Shown: positions 1,928 to 17,528, counted from the first letter of the stretch. The stretch: DNA of 20,812 bases from Candidatus Hermodarchaeota archaeon (GCA_016840065.1 JAEOTB010000009.1:1-20812), one strand, 5' to 3'. Numbers and translations are program-made. The notes: generated by a model from the sequence alone, not told the origin.

Positions 1928-3934
1928 ATGAAGTACCAGATTACATACTATATTGATTCTACTAGCTCACCTGAGAGTGAGCGGATACTCCAGATTTTCG
2001 AGGAAAATAGAGAGGCACCAGCAAAGTTTCTTGATGATGTAGCAGAGTTCATCCGAACTGGTGACCTAGAAGATGAAACAGCGTTCTGTACAGCTATGAC
2101 AATATTGTGGCTGGGCAAGCGATTCAATCTCCTCTACGAATTGGGCGACCAGTACCAAAACCAGTTTCCATCTGCTGTGATATTTACGGATGATTATTTC
2201 AACGGAAAGGTGGGTCCTGACCGGTACATCAGGAAAGTAAACGACATCAAAGCCCACGCAATGGAGATTGGTAGCCCTTACATCTACACCTATGTGACGT
2301 TCCTGCAGATGAACAGATATCGATACTTTGGTCGATTCCAGGAGATTTTCGAGTTATACGATAACCTCGTAGAATATGCCCAGAAGAATGGTGGCGACAC
2401 ACTGGTTAATGTAGCAACGCGTGGTCTTTTCCTCGTATGTTGGGCTTGCAGGAGTGTAGGGCAATTCGGGAGGGGAATTCGCGAGGGAAAGCGATTAGTG
2501 AAGCTAGCTCGTGAGCAACAGGATATTCTAGCTGAAGCCGTTGCGCTTAACGCCTTGGGAGTCTCCTACAGCCCACTAGGTCGATGGGAGGAAAGTATAG
2601 AGTGTTTCAAGCTCATGCTTCCAATTCTGGAGGAGATACACGATTTCATTGGCAAGTCCGCGTCTCTCAACAACACGGGCTATGTACTCATGTTCACAGG
2701 TAGATATGAAGAAGCAGAGAAGTATCTTCTAGAAGCTTTGGAGGTCAGGGAGAAGACCGGTGCAGTGATTCATGAGATATTACACTCTCTTGGCGAACTA
2801 TATCTATACATGGGCAAGCTGGATAAGGCGTTGAAAAATGCTGAGCGGGCCTATGAGCTTCTACCCAAAGAGGACACAATTGCTGCGTTCTATCCTGCGC
2901 TTCTTGCTCATGTCCTTACCGACCTTGGACAATTGGAAAAGGCTGATCGGTATGTTGAAGAGATACGCATTGGTGCCAAGTCTAGAAGTTCTGATTTTGA
3001 GATGATACAGTTCTACCATTGCAAAGGTTTGTTGGAGGAGAAGCGGGGTAATCTTGGTGATGCGGAGAAGGCTTTCATTGATGCTCTTTACCTTGCAGAC
3101 AGTTTAGGCTTGACACGGGACTGTGTTCGGAGCCGAGTAAGCCTTGCTAAGATACTCGCGGACCGATACAGACTTACTGGAAAGACTGAACATTTAGACC
3201 ATGCTCTAGAGGAGATGCAGCTCGCAGAGACGCTCTGCAACGAAGCTAACCTCGATGCAATGGCAACGGAAATCAAACTAATACGAGGTATAATAGACAT
3301 CCTAAAAGAGAGATTCGACGAGGCGAAGGAGATACTTGAGGAGGGGCTAGAACGTAGCCGACAGGGTGACCTCCCTCTCGTAAAGGATTTCGAGTTCTAC
3401 CTCAAAGAAGTTAATCGTCGAGCACCATCTGAGAAGGTAAGAGAGGGGATATTCAAGAGGATTCTAGGTGGAATTAGGAGGATTTTCCACGCTCAAGCAC
3501 CTAGCAAGGCTCGAAGAGAGAAACCAGTGCAGATACTTGGATGCCTAGTGATTTCCCGGCGCCATTCCACCCCAGTCTTCTCGCATCTGGAAAAGGATCG
3601 GTTCAAGTTTGACTCAGTACTCATGGGTGGACTCATAACTGCGGTGGAGATGTTCACAAGTCAATTGTCAAAAGGAGCTGAGGGCAGACTCCAATCAATC
3701 GTCCATGAACAAGTAGTCATCTTGCTAGAACATGATGAGAGCTTCGTATACGCCATTCTCGCCGACCAGAACGCGTACATTGTTCGTGCCTTAGCAAAGC
3801 GCCTGGCTTCGATGTTCAGTGATAAATTCGATCATGTTGTGAGTGATCCTAGCTGGAACCGAGACCTGAAGGAATTCGATGGTGCAGAAGGACTCTACTC
3901 TGAAGCACTCACATCCATGTCTTTAGCACCATGA
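1928..3934 (+). CDS. TPR-repeat protein with a C-terminal longin-like domain (paralog A)
   Basis: TPR-like repeats (ALNALGVSYSPLGRWEESIECF, SLNNTGYVLMFTGRYEEAEKYLLEAL, ILHSLGELYLYMGKLDKAL, KGLLEEKRGNLGDAEKAF). The C-terminal ~135 aa (3524-3931) has a beta-beta-alpha-beta-beta-beta-alpha pattern with DSVLMGGLITAVEMFTSQL...LQSIVHEQVVILLE, typical of Asgard longin-like domains. Confidence 0.85.
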   Translation: MKYQITYYIDSTSSPESERILQIFEENREAPAKFLDDVAEFIRTGDLEDETAFCTAMTILWLGKRFNLLYELGDQYQNQFPSAVIFTDDYFNGKVGPDRYIRKVNDIKAHAMEIGSPYIYTYVTFLQMNRYRYFGRFQEIFELYDNLVEYAQKNGGDTLVNVATRGLFLVCWACRSVGQFGRGIREGKRLVKLAREQQDILAEAVALNALGVSYSPLGRWEESIECFKLMLPILEEIHDFIGKSASLNNTGYVLMFTGRYEEAEKYLLEALEVREKTGAVIHEILHSLGELYLYMGKLDKALKNAERAYELLPKEDTIAAFYPALLAHVLTDLGQLEKADRYVEEIRIGAKSRSSDFEMIQFYHCKGLLEEKRGNLGDAEKAFIDALYLADSLGLTRDCVRSRVSLAKILADRYRLTGKTEHLDHALEEMQLAETLCNEANLDAMATEIKLIRGIIDILKERFDEAKEILEEGLERSRQGDLPLVKDFEFYLKEVNRRAPSEKVREGIFKRILGGIRRIFHAQAPSKARREKPVQILGCLVISRRHSTPVFSHLEKDRFKFDSVLMGGLITAVEMFTSQLSKGAEGRLQSIVHEQVVILLEHDESFVYAILADQNAYIVRALAKRLASMFSDKFDHVVSDPSWNRDLKEFDGAEGLYSEALTSMSLAP

Positions 3935-3994
3935 TTCAGCTCTTCGTGCGGTTCTGAATGGGAGAGCAGATACGAGCAGTCTTTAGCCGCTTTA

Positions 3995-4009
3995 GAAAGG
4001 GTTTAGAAG
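3995..4009 (+). promoter_or_regulatory. Putative BRE + degenerate TATA promoter of paralog B
   Basis: GAAAGGGTTTAGAAG ends about 33 nt upstream of ATG 4042. A 14/15 identical copy (GAAAGGCTTTAGAAG) lies at 17599-17613 in another intergenic region. Confidence 0.45.
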
Positions 4010-4041
4010 AACTGAAAGAGAGTTGTCGTGCGGGAATAGAA

Positions 4042-6051
4042 ATGGAGTTTCAAATTTCTTCTTATCTTGGTCCGAACCAGTCACCAGATGCTCAGGAAAT
4101 CCGCCGTATTTATGAGGAGAACAAGGATAGCCCGGTACGATTTCTAGAAGAGCTAGTGGATTTCTTCAAAGGCGGTAACGTCCAAGATGAGGCTATGTTC
4201 TTCGCTGGGTTAACACTTGTTTTTCTCCCTCAATGGAATGACATCGGATTTCAGCTTGCTCAGCAGTATAGTGAACGGTTTCCCTCCATGATGATAAATA
4301 CTCAAGAATATTTCCAGGGAAATGATATTAACTTTGATCAATACATTGAGGCAGTGAAGCAAGCTAAGTCACATGCTTTAGAGATTGGCAGCCCACGACT
4401 CTTTGTTTTCATCACACTAAACTCAATGGTGCGGCTACTCCGGTTTGGTAAGTTTGAAGAAATTGTGATGACATTCGAAAGCCTCCAAGATTTTGCTCAG
4501 AAACACAAAGAACAGGATATCACACTAGTAAGTCTTGCAAAAAGGTGCCTTTGGAGCGCTGGTTGGGCGTCTTATTTTATGGGTGATTATGAAAGGGCGT
4601 TGGAACGGTCAGAGGAATTAATTTCGCTAGCAAGGGAAGAGCAAGATCCCTTCTTTGAAGGGCATGCCCTTGTCGCTAAAGGAGCAGCAAGTTCTCCATT
4701 ATGCAGGTGGCAAGATTCGCTAGAGAGTAACGAACGAGCAATCCCGTTAAAGGAAGCAGTAGGAGACACGGCTGGACTGGCAGCGACCCTTAATAACACA
4801 GCTGGCTCCTTGATGATTCTCGGTAGATATACCGAAGCGGAAAAGTACCTCCTTGAAGCGCTGGAAATCAGAGAGAAAACGGGATTGAACGCATGGCAGA
4901 TTCTCCACAATCTAGGAGAACTTTGTTTATTCTTAGGCAAACTGAATGAAGCAAGGAGCTTTGCTGAGAAGGCATACGCTCTCCTCCCAAGAAGAGGTAT
5001 ACCATCCCCTAGTGTTTCTGATCTTCTTGCCCGTATTCTAATTGAGGAGGAGAACTTGGACCATGTAGGAAAGTACCTAGAAGAGCTGCGCACTTGGTCT
5101 GAGGCGCGAGGTTCAAAGAGCGAAACGGCCCAGTATCATCTTTGTAGGGGCTTATTTGAGGAGAAACGCGGGAATCTAAGTGAAGCCGAGGAAGCTTTCT
5201 CCACTGCGCTCTACATCGCTGATTCCCTTGGAGTCATCGATATCATCGTGCGATGCCGTGTAAGCTTAGCAGAGGTTCTTGTTGCGAGGTTTAGAATAAC
5301 TCAGAAAAAGGAATACCTGCATCAATCTCTTGAGGAGCTGCAGCTAGCTGAGGTTCTCTGCAACGAAGCTAACCTCGAAGCTCTATCAACCGAGATAAAA
5401 CTCCTTCAAGGCATAATTGCTATCCTGGATGAACGGTACGAAGAAGCGAAAGAGGTTCTCGAGAGGGGGCTGCAGGAAAGCCGAAGGAGCGGCTACCCAC
5501 TGACAAAGGATTTTGAAAACTACCTCCAAGAGGCTAGACACCGTTCTCCAACTGAGAAGGTGAAGGAGAGCATCTTCAGGCGAATCATTCGCGGCATACG
5601 AAGAGTTCTCAACTGGCAAGCTCCAAGCACGCCCAGTAGGGTTCCTGTGAAAATCCTTGGGTGTATTATCATATCGCGGCGCCATGCTACCCCGGTCTTT
5701 TCACACCTTGAGGAGGGGCGTTTCAGGTTTGACTCGGTCCTGATGGGAGGGTTGATTACGGCGGTCGAGATGTTCACTAGCTCGCTTGCTAAGGAGGAAA
5801 GAGGCCGGTTACAATCAATAATACACGAGCAAATAGTCATCCTCCTAGAGCATGATGAGAGCTTCGTTTACGCAATACTTTCCGACAAGAGTGCCTATGT
5901 AGCCAGAGCACTAGCAAAGCGCCTCGCTTCAATGTTCAGCGAAAAATACGACCACATAGTACGTAATCCTACCTGGAATCATGATGTGAGCCAGTTCGAA
6001 GGAGCAGATGAACTCTTTACAGAAGCCCTGACATCGATGCAACTAGCCTAA
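4042..6051 (+). CDS. TPR-repeat protein with a C-terminal longin-like domain (paralog B)
   Basis: Collinear with paralog A over its full length. MEFQISSY at 4042 aligns with MKYQITYY, so 4042 is preferred over the track's 3958. The longin-like domain spans 5644-6048. Confidence 0.85.
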   Translation: MEFQISSYLGPNQSPDAQEIRRIYEENKDSPVRFLEELVDFFKGGNVQDEAMFFAGLTLVFLPQWNDIGFQLAQQYSERFPSMMINTQEYFQGNDINFDQYIEAVKQAKSHALEIGSPRLFVFITLNSMVRLLRFGKFEEIVMTFESLQDFAQKHKEQDITLVSLAKRCLWSAGWASYFMGDYERALERSEELISLAREEQDPFFEGHALVAKGAASSPLCRWQDSLESNERAIPLKEAVGDTAGLAATLNNTAGSLMILGRYTEAEKYLLEALEIREKTGLNAWQILHNLGELCLFLGKLNEARSFAEKAYALLPRRGIPSPSVSDLLARILIEEENLDHVGKYLEELRTWSEARGSKSETAQYHLCRGLFEEKRGNLSEAEEAFSTALYIADSLGVIDIIVRCRVSLAEVLVARFRITQKKEYLHQSLEELQLAEVLCNEANLEALSTEIKLLQGIIAILDERYEEAKEVLERGLQESRRSGYPLTKDFENYLQEARHRSPTEKVKESIFRRIIRGIRRVLNWQAPSTPSRVPVKILGCIIISRRHATPVFSHLEEGRFRFDSVLMGGLITAVEMFTSSLAKEERGRLQSIIHEQIVILLEHDESFVYAILSDKSAYVARALAKRLASMFSEKYDHIVRNPTWNHDVSQFEGADELFTEALTSMQLA

Positions 6052-7472
6052 GCCGTTTCATCATGCCTTGCTCTTTCAGCTATTGCAGCCCTCTTTTCCT
6101 CATGCAGCTTCTTTAGTTGCTCCTGCATCTTCTTGAGCCGTTCACCGTGTAGTGGATAGTAGTATATGAAAATCAAGCTTATTGCAACAACCACAGCAGG
6201 AACCAGGATGAACAGGAGTTTTATCCCAAAGAACGCTGAGTCTGGTTGGACTGAGATAGCTCCATCTTGGACGTAACCAAATGTTGTTAGAATCACTGTG
6301 GCAATAATCGGGCCAATACTTGCCGCGGGCTTCGTCACAAGCGACATGGATCCTACGAACATTCCTTCTCTCCGAGAACCATGGAGGACCTCGTCCTCAT
6401 CAACGGCGAGAAACTGCATTGGAATCTGAAAGACACCATATCCTCCAAGGATATAGTAAAGAATCAACCGAACCCAGATTAGTGACTCTAGAGGCCCAGG
6501 AGGAAGGATTGGGAACAATAAGACAACCGAAGCTATGACTCGCATGATTCCGAATCTTAGGATAGTTTTGCGCATACCCCACCTTCTCTCAAGCCTGATA
6601 GCGATGAGATACGAGCCTAAAGTCCCAAAGAAATAGATGATGAAGAAGTAAAGCAAGACACTAAGTCCAGGAGTGATTTTCTCTAGTAAAAGAATGTAAA
6701 TGAAGAAGTAGCTAAGACCAATATTGGTGAGAAGAACCTGACAGAAATAGAAGCCCGAGTATATTAGGAATGTTCGCGACTTGAACGTCGTCTTGAGAGA
6801 CTCCCTCAGGGTGAAAACTTCATCTTGACTGAACTCGGGTCTCTCCTTGCTAAGGAAGGCTGTTAGCAAGAGGAAGATAGTAGAGATTATAGCAGGAATG
6901 AACATGAACCATCTGAAAACATCAGAGTTGGGTGGTATGTCTCCTAGAATAATTAAGGGAGGGAGGATAGTGAGCAATCCTATCAAACTAGAGAGGAACT
7001 GGGCTTTATTCCGTGTGTCAATAGACTGGGTCATCTCGGGGAGAATGGCCAGCCAAGCGACTAGAACGAGAGTGAGCATGGTATCAAACAAGCAGATTGT
7101 CAGAACATAATGGAGGAAAATGATAATCTGGTAATTAAGGCTCAAAGGCTGAATAACGGGGGTCCAGGGGAACCATACGAGCAGGAAGGTCAGAGCCCAA
7201 ACGGGTCCCCCATACTTGATGTATACAATCCGTCTGCTGCCCCACCTCTCCCTGTTTGTACGATCAGAAAGCTGTCCCGACAATGGGTCATTCAGGGCAT
7301 TAACAGTCATGTAGATTACTTGACCAACAATGAAGAGAAACGGCCATAATTGCAAGTCATCGTAGAAGAACTCGACGTATTTTAGCGAGAATATGAAGGC
7401 TAGTAGCCCAGTGGGGACTGCGCCAAGGGCCCAGCCGAAGATGTTTCGGGTACGAATCTTTTCAGAGGTCAT
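6048..7472 (-). CDS. MFS transporter, glycoside-pentoside-hexuronide (MFS_2 / MelB-like) family
   Basis: NALNDPLSGQLSDRT..RWGSRR, PEMTQSIDTR, VDEDEVLHGSRREG and YYYPL motifs, with about 12 hydrophobic segments. ATG 7472 (MTSEK) is preferred over the track's TTG 7553. Confidence 0.9.
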   Translation of the reverse strand: MTSEKIRTRNIFGWALGAVPTGLLAFIFSLKYVEFFYDDLQLWPFLFIVGQVIYMTVNALNDPLSGQLSDRTNRERWGSRRIVYIKYGGPVWALTFLLVWFPWTPVIQPLSLNYQIIIFLHYVLTICLFDTMLTLVLVAWLAILPEMTQSIDTRNKAQFLSSLIGLLTILPPLIILGDIPPNSDVFRWFMFIPAIISTIFLLLTAFLSKERPEFSQDEVFTLRESLKTTFKSRTFLIYSGFYFCQVLLTNIGLSYFFIYILLLEKITPGLSVLLYFFIIYFFGTLGSYLIAIRLERRWGMRKTILRFGIMRVIASVVLLFPILPPGPLESLIWVRLILYYILGGYGVFQIPMQFLAVDEDEVLHGSRREGMFVGSMSLVTKPAASIGPIIATVILTTFGYVQDGAISVQPDSAFFGIKLLFILVPAVVVAISLIFIYYYPLHGERLKKMQEQLKKLHEEKRAAIAERARHDETA

Positions 7473-7543
7473 AGCTTTCTCTCTAATAACCAAAATATCT
7501 TGTTTATTTTGATTCAGCTTGAACAAGGTTTTCCAGAAAGGAA

Positions 7544-7604
7544 TAGATACCAATCAGTTAGTCGACTAATAGAGTTCGAGTTTAGATACCAATCAGTTTG
7601 TCGA
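7544..7604. repeat. 22-bp direct repeat with one mismatch and a 39-bp period, duplicating the 3' end of cobB
   Basis: TAGATACCAATCAGTTAGTCGA (7544-7565) versus TAGATACCAATCAGTTTGTCGA (7583-7604). Confidence 0.85.
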
Positions 7605-10385: not shown

Positions 10386-11963
10386 ATGCCAAGCTTGGAT
10401 GATATGCCAAAAATAGACTTGTACCTAGACACCCGGGAAAACAAACTACACCTCCCAGGAACAAGACGGGTCTGCGGCAGAGTACCGGAAGAACACCGCA
10501 AAGTCTTCACAGGATTCTACGAACCTTTCTTCGAAGAAAAAGGAGTCTCCTACTGCGACGGATGCCTTGACGACAGCTTGGTGCTTTATCTTGCCATGCT
10601 GGAAAAGGATGTCCGTTATTTCCTCACAGAAGGCAAGATGAGAAAACCTTGGTTGCCTATGGGACGTTTCGTCGGGAACGAACGCACGAAAGAAACGCAT
10701 ATGCCGGATTGCAGTTATATTCGCAGGATTAAGGAGTCGAACAAGCTCTTTTACAGGTCCCTCACTGACGCTAAGTTGAACGGTCATGATTGGTGCGGGC
10801 ATTGTATGCCAGAGCATTTCTGGAAGTACATCCTTGAACTTGAATCTATTCTGATGAGAGGGTTCCCAGAGTACTTCAGGTCTAAGATCTATGAGGACTG
10901 GAAAGGTATTGGGATGCCTTGTCACTCTTTTCTGAGTTACGTAGAGGGTTATGGCAAGGAGGAGGCCTTGGAGTTTCTGAAACAGGACCAGTGCAAGTAC
11001 ATCTTTATGATATTCGGCGGTCAGCAAGGACCTACTAATGACACTGGAGACGAGGCGGACAAGATTCTCTACCAGGATTTGACTGGATCAGAGCGTACTC
11101 CTGAAGGGACTGGTTGGGCTGGACAATACAGGATTCGGTCAGTGACCAAGACGCCCACCATCGCGTCTATCCTGCACTTCATGTACAGCGACATGGGCCT
11201 GATCATAGACTTCCTGAATTGCAAGTATGACTTTGAAATGGAGGAGTATGAGCAGCAGAAGTCGCTGGACAAGATGGAGGAGTTCTTTTTCTACAAGTTC
11301 TTCAGTGAGGACGTTGATTTGTCTGATAAGAAGTTCTTCATAATCGGTTCAGGGCGAGGCGGGGTGTATGCGCTAAAGTTTGTTGAGATTATGGCTAGAC
11401 GTGACCTAAAGGAGAACATCAGCGCAGTTGTCACAATTGATCCCAAGATTAACCCGCTGAAACATCCGGAGGACCGGCTAATCGATTATTTCGCCGTTCA
11501 AAAAGAAGGTGGAGGTCCCGATGAGTGGGAAACAATCGAAAAAGACGATTCAGTTGGACCCTTCGTTCCAGATGAGCGTGGTGTGATTAGCATCGAGCAC
11601 GGCGGTGATTCGCCCGGACACACAGCTGCTCCACTGACTCCCACACGGTTCTTCGAAGTGCTGCACAGTGTTGAAGGAATTCCGTACTTCAATGTGTTCC
11701 AGCGAAAGGACTTGGTGAATATTTTCGGTGGAAGCGCACTCATTCATCCTGTAGGCTCAGCCATTAAACGAGCGACATCGCCGCTAGCCAGTGAGTGGCC
11801 GGGGGCAAAAGAGGAGCAATATCTGAGACCGGGTACAGCACCCTACAGCCAGATGGACATTGTGGCTGATAAGCATACACCTGGTATGCTAGAGAAGTAC
11901 GCAGATTGGGTCATATACCTGGCGAGAAGGAGGCTTCCCTTCGTCGAGGCTCCCAGCGAGTAG
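10386..11963 (+). CDS. Hypothetical protein: two Ada-like Zn-binding repeats fused to an alpha/beta-hydrolase-fold domain
   Basis: Repeat 1 is YLDTRENKLH..C...SYCDGC and repeat 2 is FVGNERTKETHMPDC...GHDWCGHCMP. The C-terminal part has YIFMIFGG, FFIIGSGRGGVYAL and ISAVVTIDP. A GAGGT RBS lies upstream. Confidence 0.7.
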   Translation: MPSLDDMPKIDLYLDTRENKLHLPGTRRVCGRVPEEHRKVFTGFYEPFFEEKGVSYCDGCLDDSLVLYLAMLEKDVRYFLTEGKMRKPWLPMGRFVGNERTKETHMPDCSYIRRIKESNKLFYRSLTDAKLNGHDWCGHCMPEHFWKYILELESILMRGFPEYFRSKIYEDWKGIGMPCHSFLSYVEGYGKEEALEFLKQDQCKYIFMIFGGQQGPTNDTGDEADKILYQDLTGSERTPEGTGWAGQYRIRSVTKTPTIASILHFMYSDMGLIIDFLNCKYDFEMEEYEQQKSLDKMEEFFFYKFFSEDVDLSDKKFFIIGSGRGGVYALKFVEIMARRDLKENISAVVTIDPKINPLKHPEDRLIDYFAVQKEGGGPDEWETIEKDDSVGPFVPDERGVISIEHGGDSPGHTAAPLTPTRFFEVLHSVEGIPYFNVFQRKDLVNIFGGSALIHPVGSAIKRATSPLASEWPGAKEEQYLRPGTAPYSQMDIVADKHTPGMLEKYADWVIYLARRRLPFVEAPSE

Positions 11964-11971
11964 TCTGATGT

Positions 11972-12691
11972 TTAGGTCCCAGCAAGGTTGCGTCGCCAGT
12001 CCTGTACGATACGACGTTCCCGCTTGAAATGACCTAGTTCACCTGCCCATTTGCCGCCGATGATGGCGCCGAAGGCTTCTGCGATGGCGAGAACTAGTGC
12101 CATTGCTAGTCCAATCCATTCACCACCCAAGATGTAGCCAAGGCTGCCAACCCAAGTGGCAGTTATCACTGTCCATATTCCTGCGAAGAAGAAGAACCAC
12201 TGCCTGTGCGGTGGATGTGCCTTCAGATAAGTTACATAGTTGATCTTGAGGGTGGGGAGGAAGTAAATGTCACGTGTGATGCCATCTAGACCGATTTTTG
12301 TGTATTTGCTGGCGATAAGTCGTCCGAAGGGGTAGAATGAGAAGATTGCCCCTCCTACTGTTCCTCCTCTTATGCTCATGACTATCACAAAATCGTTAAA
12401 GAAATCGCCATTATAGGGCGGACCAAGAGTGACCGCCCAGAGATGCGCGCCCACACATAACACACCCAAAAGGAACCATATGGTCAGCCAGCTTATAGGC
12501 TTTGGACTCCCAAGGCGGCGCTCGTAGAAGATATCTCGTATTTCAGCGGCTTTTCTGATGGCTTCTTCACTCGGTGATGGCATACGCTTGATTTTACCGA
12601 CTATTCCCCAGAATTTTCGTCGCGTCTTAGAGTCAACACCCTCAGGATGAGCTTTGACTTGCTCATATAATTCAGTGAGCTCCTTTAGCAC
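11972..12691 (-). CDS. Uncharacterised integral membrane protein (about 4 TM), distantly M50-peptidase-like in layout
   Basis: GTG start preceded by a GGTGA RBS. A helical soluble N-terminus (KFWGIVGKIKR) is followed by hydrophobic segments and LKINYVTYLKAHPPHRQW..AG. Confidence 0.75.
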   Translation of the reverse strand: MLKELTELYEQVKAHPEGVDSKTRRKFWGIVGKIKRMPSPSEEAIRKAAEIRDIFYERRLGSPKPISWLTIWFLLGVLCVGAHLWAVTLGPPYNGDFFNDFVIVMSIRGGTVGGAIFSFYPFGRLIASKYTKIGLDGITRDIYFLPTLKINYVTYLKAHPPHRQWFFFFAGIWTVITATWVGSLGYILGGEWIGLAMALVLAIAEAFGAIIGGKWAGELGHFKRERRIVQDWRRNLAGT

Positions 12692-14927: not shown

Positions 14928-17528
14928 CTAGGATTTGGGACGCCGACGCCGTAGGATAGGAAATATCTGGTCAGAGTTGATGATACGGTCGCCGTCAACT
15001 TTTACGGCAACAGGATATAACAGGAAGGGCTCGGTTTGAGGACCACCAAGACCACCATGGTTTCCTATGAGCTCCTCGTAAGCTGCGACTGTGCCGTCTT
15101 CGTAGACCGGCGAGATTATGACGAGATCACCGCTGTTCTTGTATTCGGCGAGTCGGCGTAACTGTTGTACCCGGATTTTCTCACGTCCGTATTGTGTCAA
15201 TGGGTTTTTACCTTTGACGCGTCCAGTTCGAAGTCTGATGGAACCTCCTTTGCCAAGGAGTATTGGACCTTCGTTTCTTCCGCCATCAACAATAACGATT
15301 CCGACACCTTCATGGGCTACTAGCTGGTCGATTAACCCCGGATACTTTGCTTCCAAGTTATCTCTAGTCACCCGACTTACCCTGTGTGTGAAATAAACCT
15401 GTGCTAGATTCCCTGAGGCACAAACAACCACGTCCGCATCTTCAATATCCACTGCAGTGCTAGCTTCGATTTCCTTAGTTCGTCTATGGATGAACCCAGT
15501 GGATTGAAGAACATCGCCTTCACCGGCTTCTTTTCCTACCGCTTGCCTCTGCCCCTCGGCCAAATCCTCCGAGAGACCTGCGACATAGCCTGCATGGGCG
15601 TCTTGTGCTTTAACTTCTCCCACTTTAGCCCGTCCAGCTAGCAGTTCAGCAATGTATTCCTTTAGGGATAGTTTGTATCGCTGTTTGAAAGTCCAGCCCC
15701 AAGACTGGCCATGGTCCGCGAGGAGAAACAACTCGTAGGGACGAGGTGCATGGCGTTCGATTACACGGATAAGCCTGCGGAGCTGTTTATCAATTCCCTT
15801 TAGAGACTTGAGTGCGTCAGTCGAAATTGGTCCCGAATGATGCGCTATCTCGTCGTAACCAAGATATGTTGCATAAATCGCTGGAGATCCCCTTAGAAGG
15901 TCTTGACTCACCATCGCTGTGACGATGTCTCTCATGAAAACGTTCGTCGCAGCCCGTACAAACGGGTAGCCGTGAGCGAAGCGGTTCATCCGAGGCTTCC
16001 TTCGGGTAATCGTTTGTTTGATAATCTGCCCAATCTCGACGATAACGTCCCAAATAGTGTGGATGAGGGACCGGTTGAGGGCATAGGGATCAAGCAGATA
16101 GTAATACAAGTCCTCGCTACGTCGTCGACCTGCTTTACTGTCTTCTTTGGTGAGGGTACTCATTGTGAAGAAACTGAAGGAGGCGTCGCCGCTGAGTAGA
16201 TTGCCCACACTTGAACCGCCATTTGTAAGGAGGCCCTTTCCTGATGAGGCACGGTCATCAATAAATTTAGCATCACTAGGGCTGTTTGAGACTACCATGC
16301 GTTTCTCTCGTTTGAGGAACCACCGGAAGGCAGGAATGTCGTCGTTGTTACCGTGAAGAATGCCTGCCTGGCAAGAGGAAGTCATGGAAGGGATACCACA
16401 GTCCCATTGAACAGCTTTGTGGCTACCTGAATCCAGTATCTTCTGAAAAGTGGGCATGTATCCTCGCTCGAGGGCCTTCTGCAAAGCCTGATATCCAAGA
16501 CCATCAATCTCGATAGCGACAAGCCCTGGTGTCTCGGGAACACCCTTCATCCCCGCCTTCGCCCGGAGACGCCAACGAACAATACCTTGGAAGAAGGAGG
16601 AATCCTCATCAATGCCAACCGCGGAAAGGAAAATCGTGTTGACTGCTGAGAGGAGAAGGCTGCCAACGAACGCGTCTAATAGAAACAGGACAGTGAAGTC
16701 GGGAAGGATTAGCTGAAGATAATAGAGAATGAAGGTATTCACGATAATAATGAGGACAAAAGAGATTGCAAAGCCTAACCACCAACGAGCAGCCTGGGTA
16801 ACCAGCTTGGTAACAAGAGGCCGAATCAAGAGATTAATGACAGCCAAAAGCGCCACAGTAAGATAAGCAATACCCAACCTAGTGAGAATATCACCACCAG
16901 TGATGCCGATTTGAATCCCAGGTAAGAATAAAGCAGTCCAGATAAGACAGACCACGTTAAAATTCCACATCAAGACCAAGCGGCCCATGCTGAGGCTTTT
17001 ACCTTCTAAATCACCGAGTTGCCAGACTAGCATTGCTCCGACAAAGAAGACGTTTATCGCTAATAGCATGAAGAAGACATTAAACGCTTGGAACATTAGT
17101 TGCCAGAGCCCAGTTGTGGTCATTCCCGGGTAGAGGACTTCGAGTATGTAACTTGAGACGCTGGCGACTATGCAGAGTGCAGACACCCACAGGCCGAGGG
17201 GGATAGCCCACCATTTCTTGTAGGCGGTTCCTAGTGCTACAATCATCCCTATGATTCCTGCAATCGCAAGAATCCATCCAAAGATGAAGAGCCAGTTGAA
17301 GATCATAGGCAGCGTGAGTCCTGCTTCTCCCATCGCTGCTATTAATGCATCATATACCGCTGGTTCAAGGCTTGATAGGTAACTGGCTACTTGTCCTGGT
17401 GATGAGAGGAGGCCTCCGCCAAAAAGTGCAACGACAAACATAACCAGGTAGTCGATTCCTGCTATGACTCTGACAGCTCGTGGAGCAACCTCTAATTTTA
17501 TTGGACCTTTAGGCTTTTCATCGGTCAA
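14928..17528 (-). CDS. Membrane protein: extra N-terminal TM domain + 4-TM 'phage holin family'-like domain + alkaline-phosphatase-superfamily (NPP-like) phosphodiesterase
   Basis: Holin-IV-like segment ALLAVINLLIRPLV..FVLIIIVNTFIL..AFVGSLLLSAVN. AP/NPP ligands IEIDGL, SMTSSCQ (Thr nucleophile), GYDEIAHH, LADHGQ and NHGG. TTG start with a GAGG RBS. Confidence 0.85.
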   Translation of the reverse strand: MTDEKPKGPIKLEVAPRAVRVIAGIDYLVMFVVALFGGGLLSSPGQVASYLSSLEPAVYDALIAAMGEAGLTLPMIFNWLFIFGWILAIAGIIGMIVALGTAYKKWWAIPLGLWVSALCIVASVSSYILEVLYPGMTTTGLWQLMFQAFNVFFMLLAINVFFVGAMLVWQLGDLEGKSLSMGRLVLMWNFNVVCLIWTALFLPGIQIGITGGDILTRLGIAYLTVALLAVINLLIRPLVTKLVTQAARWWLGFAISFVLIIIVNTFILYYLQLILPDFTVLFLLDAFVGSLLLSAVNTIFLSAVGIDEDSSFFQGIVRWRLRAKAGMKGVPETPGLVAIEIDGLGYQALQKALERGYMPTFQKILDSGSHKAVQWDCGIPSMTSSCQAGILHGNNDDIPAFRWFLKREKRMVVSNSPSDAKFIDDRASSGKGLLTNGGSSVGNLLSGDASFSFFTMSTLTKEDSKAGRRRSEDLYYYLLDPYALNRSLIHTIWDVIVEIGQIIKQTITRRKPRMNRFAHGYPFVRAATNVFMRDIVTAMVSQDLLRGSPAIYATYLGYDEIAHHSGPISTDALKSLKGIDKQLRRLIRVIERHAPRPYELFLLADHGQSWGWTFKQRYKLSLKEYIAELLAGRAKVGEVKAQDAHAGYVAGLSEDLAEGQRQAVGKEAGEGDVLQSTGFIHRRTKEIEASTAVDIEDADVVVCASGNLAQVYFTHRVSRVTRDNLEAKYPGLIDQLVAHEGVGIVIVDGGRNEGPILLGKGGSIRLRTGRVKGKNPLTQYGREKIRVQQLRRLAEYKNSGDLVIISPVYEDGTVAAYEELIGNHGGLGGPQTEPFLLYPVAVKVDGDRIINSDQIFPILRRRRPKS

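Follow-up and report, generated by a model that had tools for sequence, protein, structure and literature searches.

What are two large, related genes doing side by side in an Asgard archaeon, and do they work as a pair? The question is raised by a 20,812-nt stretch of DNA from Candidatus Hermodarchaeota archaeon (hereafter the window, by which we mean the whole of this stretch), a 20.8-kb contig (C47) in a metagenome-assembled genome (MAG) of 2.59 Mb with 84% completeness and 5% contamination. Its genes A and B each encode a tetratricopeptide repeat (TPR) solenoid followed by a C-terminal domain that our models place in the longin fold. The answer that we favor, and to which we give about an even chance, is that A and B are old paralogs of a stand-alone Asgard family of TPR-longin scaffolds, which would dimerize and use the longin pair to dock a small GTPase. 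The features on which this argument draws are the following:

1928..3934, plus strand: gene A, a TPR-longin protein of 668 aa (P0001); open reading frame (ORF), TPR Pfam matches and a full-length AlphaFold2 (AF2) model
3958..6051, plus strand: gene B, a TPR-longin paralog of 697 aa (P0002); ORF, 52% identity to A
1970..3484, plus strand: continuous alpha-solenoid of A, residues ~15-519, ~29 helices; DSSP assignment of the model, TPR matches and Foldseek
3485..3532, plus strand: flexible basic linker of A, residues ~520-535; predicted local distance difference test (pLDDT) below 50 at 527-530, no secondary structure
3533..3916, plus strand: modeled C-terminal longin of A, residues ~536-663; AF2 fold, Foldseek, VIA and PF19036 matches in the family
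3692..3754, plus strand: in A, end of helix a1, loop and strand b3 with the motif G-x-LQSI-x-H; most conserved motif of the family, within the predicted interface
5644..6048, plus strand: predicted C-terminal longin of B, residues ~563-697; 71% identical to the A domain, DNA direct repeats

An earlier note on this DNA had described two adjacent paralogs of ~670 aa, and this is what we find, namely two plus-strand ORFs of 668 and 697 (or 669) aa whose products share 52% identity over their full length (E = 0). Translation of B may start at an ATG at 4042 (giving the 669-aa product), because Met1 of A pairs with Met29 of B in the alignment and the bases upstream of this ATG (GGGAATAGAAATG) look like those upstream of the A start (GGGGAATACAAGATG); the spacer between the genes is 23 nt with the long start of B and 107 nt with the start at 4042. 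In both proteins a TPR-type alpha-solenoid of ~520 residues is joined through a short linker to a C-terminal domain of ~130 residues. The note had also seen no nuclease, protease, NTPase, helix-turn-helix (HTH) or transmembrane (TM) segment in them, and neither did we, with scans against Pfam, NCBIfam and PADLOC returning TPR families only and the top 19-residue hydropathy values (1.28 in A, 1.74 in B) both falling within solenoid helices, with no convincing TM segment. A role in anti-phage defense was considered and rejected, as the PADLOC matches are generic TPR models only.

The assignment of the C-terminal domain comes first, since the note had predicted a longin there, in the parts encoded at 3524-3931 (A 533-668) and 5644-6048 (B 563-697). 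These ranges agree with the globular domain at 536-663 of the A model and with DNA direct repeats (D1/D2) at the two longin-coding parts, which are 73-74% identical at a spacing of 2120 nt. An AF2 model of the isolated A domain (45 homologs, pLDDT 87.7) has the element order of a longin, b1-b2-a1-b3-b4-b5-a2-a3, that is, strands E17-24 and E29-35, helix H44-62, strands E71-74, E77-83 and E87-93, and helices H98-120 and H134-144, and the full-length model agrees. Foldseek returned longins for all of its top 30 matches, with Fuzzy at the top and AP sigma, COPI zeta, Mon1/Ccz1 and Sec22b among them, and an exhaustive VIA-align search gave Sec22 (Z 13.2), Fuzzy (12.7), SYBL1 (12.4), synbindin (12.3) and AP-3 sigma (12.0). 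At the sequence level no curated longin family in Pfam matched the A or B domain above threshold (the only match being MAPKK1_Int, E 0.03). Across the 45 family members, PF19036, the first longin of FUZ/MON1/HPS1, matches 18 (best E 1.1e-5), PF19031 matches 3, PF13774 matches 3 and Robl_LC7 matches 4, and a profile search of PDB sequences with the domain found a roadblock protein of MK-D1 (E 0.0018). A roadblock/LC7 domain of the MglB type would show the order a-b-b-a-b-b-b, with a helix at the N-terminus packed against the sheet and without a third C-terminal helix. We considered this identity and rejected it: behind the disordered linker the domain begins with a pair of strands, it has an additional helix (134-144) at its end, and the roadblock matches are partial and weaker. 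In fact the VIA longin alignments reach residue ~148 and so include the C-terminal helix, whereas those to roadblock proteins (MglB, MglC, LAMTOR and 9jue) have Z values of at most 9.3 and stop near residue 113-121, because roadblock proteins are without the last helix. At the level of fold, the models thus indicate that the domain is a true longin.

If it is a longin, does it pair? A complex model of the A longin with the B longin scored an ipSAE of 0.83, against 0.04 for the best of three controls. Among solved complexes 58 of 80 attain this mark, among mismatched pairs 2 of 110; as a caveat, the A/B score was obtained with custom-built alignments. The runs agreed in at least 82% of contacts, and the pLDDT of the partners was at least 83. 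The modeled interface is symmetric, with b3 on b3 (residue 72 with 72) and a1 against a1, which is the canonical longin/roadblock dimer, and it comprises residues 40-42, 50, 54, 57-63, 65-77, 79 and 92 in domain numbering. The most conserved motif of the family, G-x-LQSI-x-H, coincides with this predicted interface: over 45 sequences I72 is invariant, and G67, L69 and H74 are nearly so. The A/B longin dimer that the note had suggested therefore passed its controls, and we consider it quite probable, judging from the models, that the longin domain mediates dimerization.

The remainder of each protein is a TPR repeat protein, with curated TPR models above threshold and a superhelical solenoid in the full-length AF2 model of A (29-sequence family alignment, pLDDT 85, predicted template modeling score (pTM) 0.80). 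A matches TPR_12 at 80.2 bits (cut-off 30.1), TPR_2 at 59.9 and TPR_MalT at 49.6 (cut-off 45), the matches of B are similar, and the TPR families cover residues ~175-350. Three canonical TPRs of A with groove Asn residues lie at ~200-315, and the family consensus in this region (ALNxLG / LNNxG / LxNL) keeps the groove Asn typical of peptide-binding TPRs. The note had separated a helical N-terminal region from the TPR solenoid; the solenoid is there, and the N-terminal region is merely its start, with helices running through 15-519. The best Foldseek matches of the whole protein are the TPRs of LGN/Pins, APC5, APPBP2 and the TPRs of OGT (E 3e-7, 16-20% identity), and this likeness is generic TPR similarity that implies no homology beyond the repeat.

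With this combination, A and B belong to a TPR-longin family of ~650 aa that is, as sampled here, found in Asgard MAGs only. A phmmer search with the C-terminal domain found 53 proteins in 1.84 billion representatives, most of which are ~650 aa long and end with this domain; members with a named source are from MAGs of Promethearchaeota, Thorarchaeota and Hermodarchaeota, where they are annotated as 'TPR repeat protein' or 'hypothetical', and the closest named homolog of the window proteins is from a Promethearchaeota (Asgard) MAG. The subfamily is patchy, being present in 10 of 201 genomes of an even sample of the phylum (E <= 1e-25) spread over three GTDB families, and in the sister genus it is absent from 15 of 15 genomes at the same threshold. 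Two further TPR-longin genes of the window's genome, on C56 (689 aa) and C32 (727 aa), are more distant, and ~21 ORFs of this genome match the longin profile in varied architectures. We found no account of a stand-alone ~650-aa TPR-longin family in the literature searched, nor, as the note had said, any functional description of such a pair.

How might such a protein work? We would picture a superhelix of ~14 TPR-like hairpins whose Asn-lined inner groove most likely holds extended client peptides, tied by the flexible basic linker to a single C-terminal longin domain. The b3 edge strands and a1 helices of two longins would then pair to give a two-armed assembly, which under this model must be a homodimer in species with only one gene, while the organism of the window may form A/A, B/B or A/B dimers. 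The longin dimer could connect one of the organism's ~30 Ras-superfamily GTPases to the proteins held by the TPRs and in this way act as a regulator or an effector/adaptor, a job that we propose because surfaces of this type are the platforms on which Mon1-Ccz1, Fuzzy-Inturned, TRAPP and MglB dock a GTPase. By this analogy a small-GTPase partner is a serious possibility, if one slightly on the doubtful side; guanine nucleotide exchange factor (GEF) or GTPase-activating protein (GAP) activity we infer only, and for GEF activity the prospects are decidedly slim.

Several observations weigh against docking of a GTPase by a longin pair. The A/B score may in part be recall of solved longin/roadblock dimers, and because the two domains are 71% identical and the interface is symmetric, the model does not distinguish a heterodimer from a homodimer. 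No Ras-superfamily ORF was found on the 20.8-kb contig by hidden Markov model (HMM) or by a G1-G3-G4 motif pattern, methods that in the window's genome as a positive control recovered 32 and 28 ORFs, respectively; of the 31 Ras-like and 14 roadblock matches in that genome, none is on the window contig. Nor was a GTPase found in related loci totaling ~185 kb (up to 10 kb around the gene in 12 distant loci, plus shorter same-genus loci), none of the genome's four TPR-longin genes (0/4) lies within 6 kb of one, and we found no conserved neighbor of any kind beyond close relatives. Longin domains also serve roles unrelated to GTPases, for example in SNAREs, and fusions of longin-like domains to receiver, HTH and V4R domains fit a general input or dimerization module equally well as a GTPase platform.

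The same lack of a conserved GTPase or other neighbor favors an alternative in which A and B are GTPase-independent scaffolds or co-chaperones, the longin serving only to dimerize and the TPR arms to assemble or hold clients. The peak of conservation at the predicted dimer interface and the resemblance of the TPR region to the peptide-binding scaffolds LGN, APC5 and APPBP2 point the same way. On the other hand, the Mon1-Ccz1, TRAPP, Ragulator and MglB complexes use longin/roadblock dimers as platforms for GTPases, and the longins of the window's genome that match the same profile show a weak excess near GTPases, with 4 of 21 within 3 kb of a Ras-like GTPase against 1.4 expected (P ~0.05). Moreover, Tran et al. 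(2024, PMC10933270) report that Asgard GTPase genes do not as a rule share operons with their presumed regulators, nor those of MK-D1 with roadblock or longin genes, and missing synteny is therefore weak evidence against a link. We regard the GTPase-independent alternative as rather unlikely, and retain the dimerizing scaffold with a docked GTPase as our preferred reading.

Could A and B instead form a dedicated heterodimeric GTPase regulator, a GEF like Mon1-Ccz1 or Fuzzy-Inturned with TPR sensor arms? The two genes are adjacent and co-oriented, 23-107 nt apart, their longin is nearest to the first longin domain of Fuzzy/Mon1, and the dimer modeled above is one of A with B. The duplication also dates far back, and purifying selection has acted on both copies, as follows from third codon positions near saturation (0.30-0.50 identity between A and B, 0.36-0.50 within the longin domains) and a conserved longin protein (68-80% identity); a maximum-likelihood tree places B as sister of the entire A clade of the genus (Shimodaira-Hasegawa approximate likelihood ratio test, SH-aLRT, 99). 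However, relatives carry one gene at the same locus. Three complete same-genus loci have a single A-type gene (81-85% identical to A) flanked by the same Amidohydro_2 and MFS_2 genes, each of 12 more distant loci has one TPR-longin gene, and no B ortholog was found in a collection of 5.8 billion proteins, B having been either lost in other species or simply left unsampled. The note's view of the pair as a two-gene system is therefore not borne out as a conserved one, and an A/B heterodimer cannot be the working unit of the family. The note's reading of a receptor coupled to a small GTPase likewise finds no support in distribution or gene context. Three further same-genus genomes have one match each, A-type by synteny, and these are not counted as evidence for a single copy, because their contigs end within the gene, possibly at the repeated longin. 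With one longin per protein against three in the tri-longin GEFs, no GTPase in the gene context, and a symmetric interface of 71%-identical domains that predicts homodimers equally well, we consider a dedicated heterodimeric GEF improbable.

An even poorer candidate is a longin-like domain that senses a ligand or signal, as GAF and PAS do among profilin-like folds, with the TPR arm as output: the same profile does match a MarR/TrmB-type HTH protein in the window's genome, ESM Atlas clusters contain domains of similar shape fused to Response_reg, HTH_47 and V4R, and Asgard longins fused to two-component domains have been described (10.1101/2020.10.19.343400), but we identified neither a ligand pocket nor a cluster of conserved polar residues in the domain, its conserved residues map to the dimer interface and not to a cavity, and its structural neighbors are all protein-binding longins. 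The HTH protein (C80:1188-2453, L022, 421 aa) has an N-terminal longin-profile match and C-terminal MarR/TrmB-type winged-helix hits, and by its sequence looks like a one-component regulator with the longin as input. Look-alikes in the ESM Atlas from Thermoplasmatota, Methanobacteriota and bacteria are only candidate homologs.

Several details of the locus and its relatives are recorded here. DNA near-identical to the window is contained in marine-sediment metagenomes from one study, and no RNA datasets are listed among the samples with such DNA. A Logan contig from run X1, the probable source sample, covers both genes together with the flank on either side; a second sample bridges B to the major facilitator superfamily (MFS) gene only and not the A-B junction, and outside X1 the X2 and X3 runs contain parts of both genes with none bridging them. 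In the three same-genus genomes with broken contigs (G001-G003; L027, L028 and L029) the break lies inside the TPR-longin gene, near the start of or within the longin-coding part, and these ends could be assembly breaks at the repeated longin segment.

A candidate third paralog, at C40:1-1887 (L020) on a 4.8-kb contig that begins within a TPR-longin gene, was rejected, the fragment being 100% identical to P0005, an A-type ortholog from another species of the genus. C40 is probably mis-binned, given this identity and the fact that the next gene, MFS_2, is 76% identical in DNA to window 6048-7553, and such mis-binning fits the 5% contamination estimate of the MAG. P0005 itself is B-like in its last ~100 residues: in two 50-column windows over residues ~547-667 it is 90% and 81% identical to B versus 78% and 67% to A, and B is matched at 6 of the last 10 informative sites versus 9 of the first 187. 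The end of P0005 may be the product of an old gene conversion or of an A/B deletion chimera, but other A-type orthologs show a milder C-terminal likeness to B, and its DNA identity is hardly higher to the 3' end of B (76%) than to that of A (73%), which does not decide for a recombinant origin.

The genes adjacent to TPR-longin genes are of unrelated housekeeping types (amidohydrolases, an MFS transporter, MutL, an ATP-binding cassette (ABC) ATPase, DNA-alkylation repair and CesT/YbjN-like proteins). The last of these are proteins of 134-136 aa, weakly like CesT/YbjN chaperones, found downstream of the TPR-longin gene in three Thorarchaeota-type loci, at L043:1967-2377 and L044:8359-8769 (both adjoining the gene) and at L042:14707-15111 (4 kb away); beyond them, in the same three loci, lies a convergent giant gene of 1700-1960 aa without a Pfam match. 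At C56:10570-14975 of the window's genome four consecutive Ras-like GTPase genes are adjoined by a weak longin match across a 63-nt gap, and this row is 6.8 kb from the TPR-longin gene at C56:20908-22977. Elsewhere in the window, ORFs at 10386-11963 (plus strand, 525 aa) and 11972-12691 (minus strand, 239 aa) have no Pfam or NCBIfam match, and 14928-17528 (minus strand) encodes an 866-aa protein with a holin-like four-TM region (Phage_holin_4_2, weak) and a type I phosphodiesterase/nucleotide pyrophosphatase domain.

Eukaryotic regulators of Rab, Rag and Arf are built around longin/roadblock dimers, and the use to which Asgard archaea put their many longins bears on research into eukaryogenesis. 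Here the TPR-longin family offers a compact, soluble and expressible target, one longin on a TPR scaffold, which sequence-family surveys would likely overlook because databases label the family only as a TPR protein, and the A/B pair is a natural test case for homo- versus heterodimer formation after duplication. It is unlikely, in our estimation, that the TPR-longin dimer represents an unrecognized class of archaeal small-GTPase regulator or effector, a homodimeric (or here A/B) platform whose TPR arms select cargo or signals. If it did, the family would be a minimal solenoid-plus-longin module with a logic resembling that of eukaryotic adaptor and tri-longin GEF complexes, and the A/B duplication a snapshot of homodimeric platforms turning heterodimeric. 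For now its value is limited, as longin fusions of the lineage-specific kind are a common and already known feature of Asgard genomes and the GTPase partner is only hypothetical.

Among known systems, the tri-longin Rab GEFs (the Fuzzy-Inturned CPLANE complex, Mon1-Ccz1 and HPS1-HPS4; PF19036, PF19031) have the same fold and element order as the A domain. Their first longins are the closest, with Fuzzy as the top Foldseek match and PF19036 matching 18 of the 45 family members, and the predicted A/B dimer uses b3 and a1. Their subunits, however, have three longins each, whereas the A model has one, at 536-663, C-terminal to an all-helical solenoid of 520 residues, and they are obligate, clade-conserved heterodimers of diverged paralogs, whereas the norm for TPR-longin proteins is a single gene. 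LGN/Pins shares the superhelical TPR and groove Asn residues but carries GoLoco motifs and not a longin. In the MglA-MglB system, with its MglA TPR effectors (SgmX and a Bdellovibrio TPR protein, PMC3983030), a dimeric platform and TPR proteins act on one GTPase, and MglB and MglC are structural neighbors of the A domain (VIA Z 9.0-9.3); yet MglB follows the roadblock order, starting with a helix, and its gene usually lies beside mglA, whereas the TPR-longin proteins have the longin order, a fused TPR and no adjacent GTPase. A solved Lokiarchaeota longin dimer, 8yqg, is likewise a structural neighbor (VIA Z 9.9). Asgard genomes are known for large, patchy roadblock/longin expansions with lineage-specific fusions (Liu et al., 10.1101/2020.10.19.343400), and longin fusions are already published (10.1101/2020.10.19.343400; PMC10936438), with GTPase, roadblock, TRAPPC3, two-component, Vps28-C and adaptin-appendage domains as partners (10.1101/2020.10.19.343400; PMC10933270; PMC10936438); in these papers TPR figures only as an extra domain of Vps28-C/longin proteins (Makarova et al. 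2024, PMC10936438). It is to these expansions that the TPR-longin family compares most directly, being likewise patchy, Asgard-only in our data, one of a genomic paralog set of ~21 matches, and fused to a promiscuous repeat.

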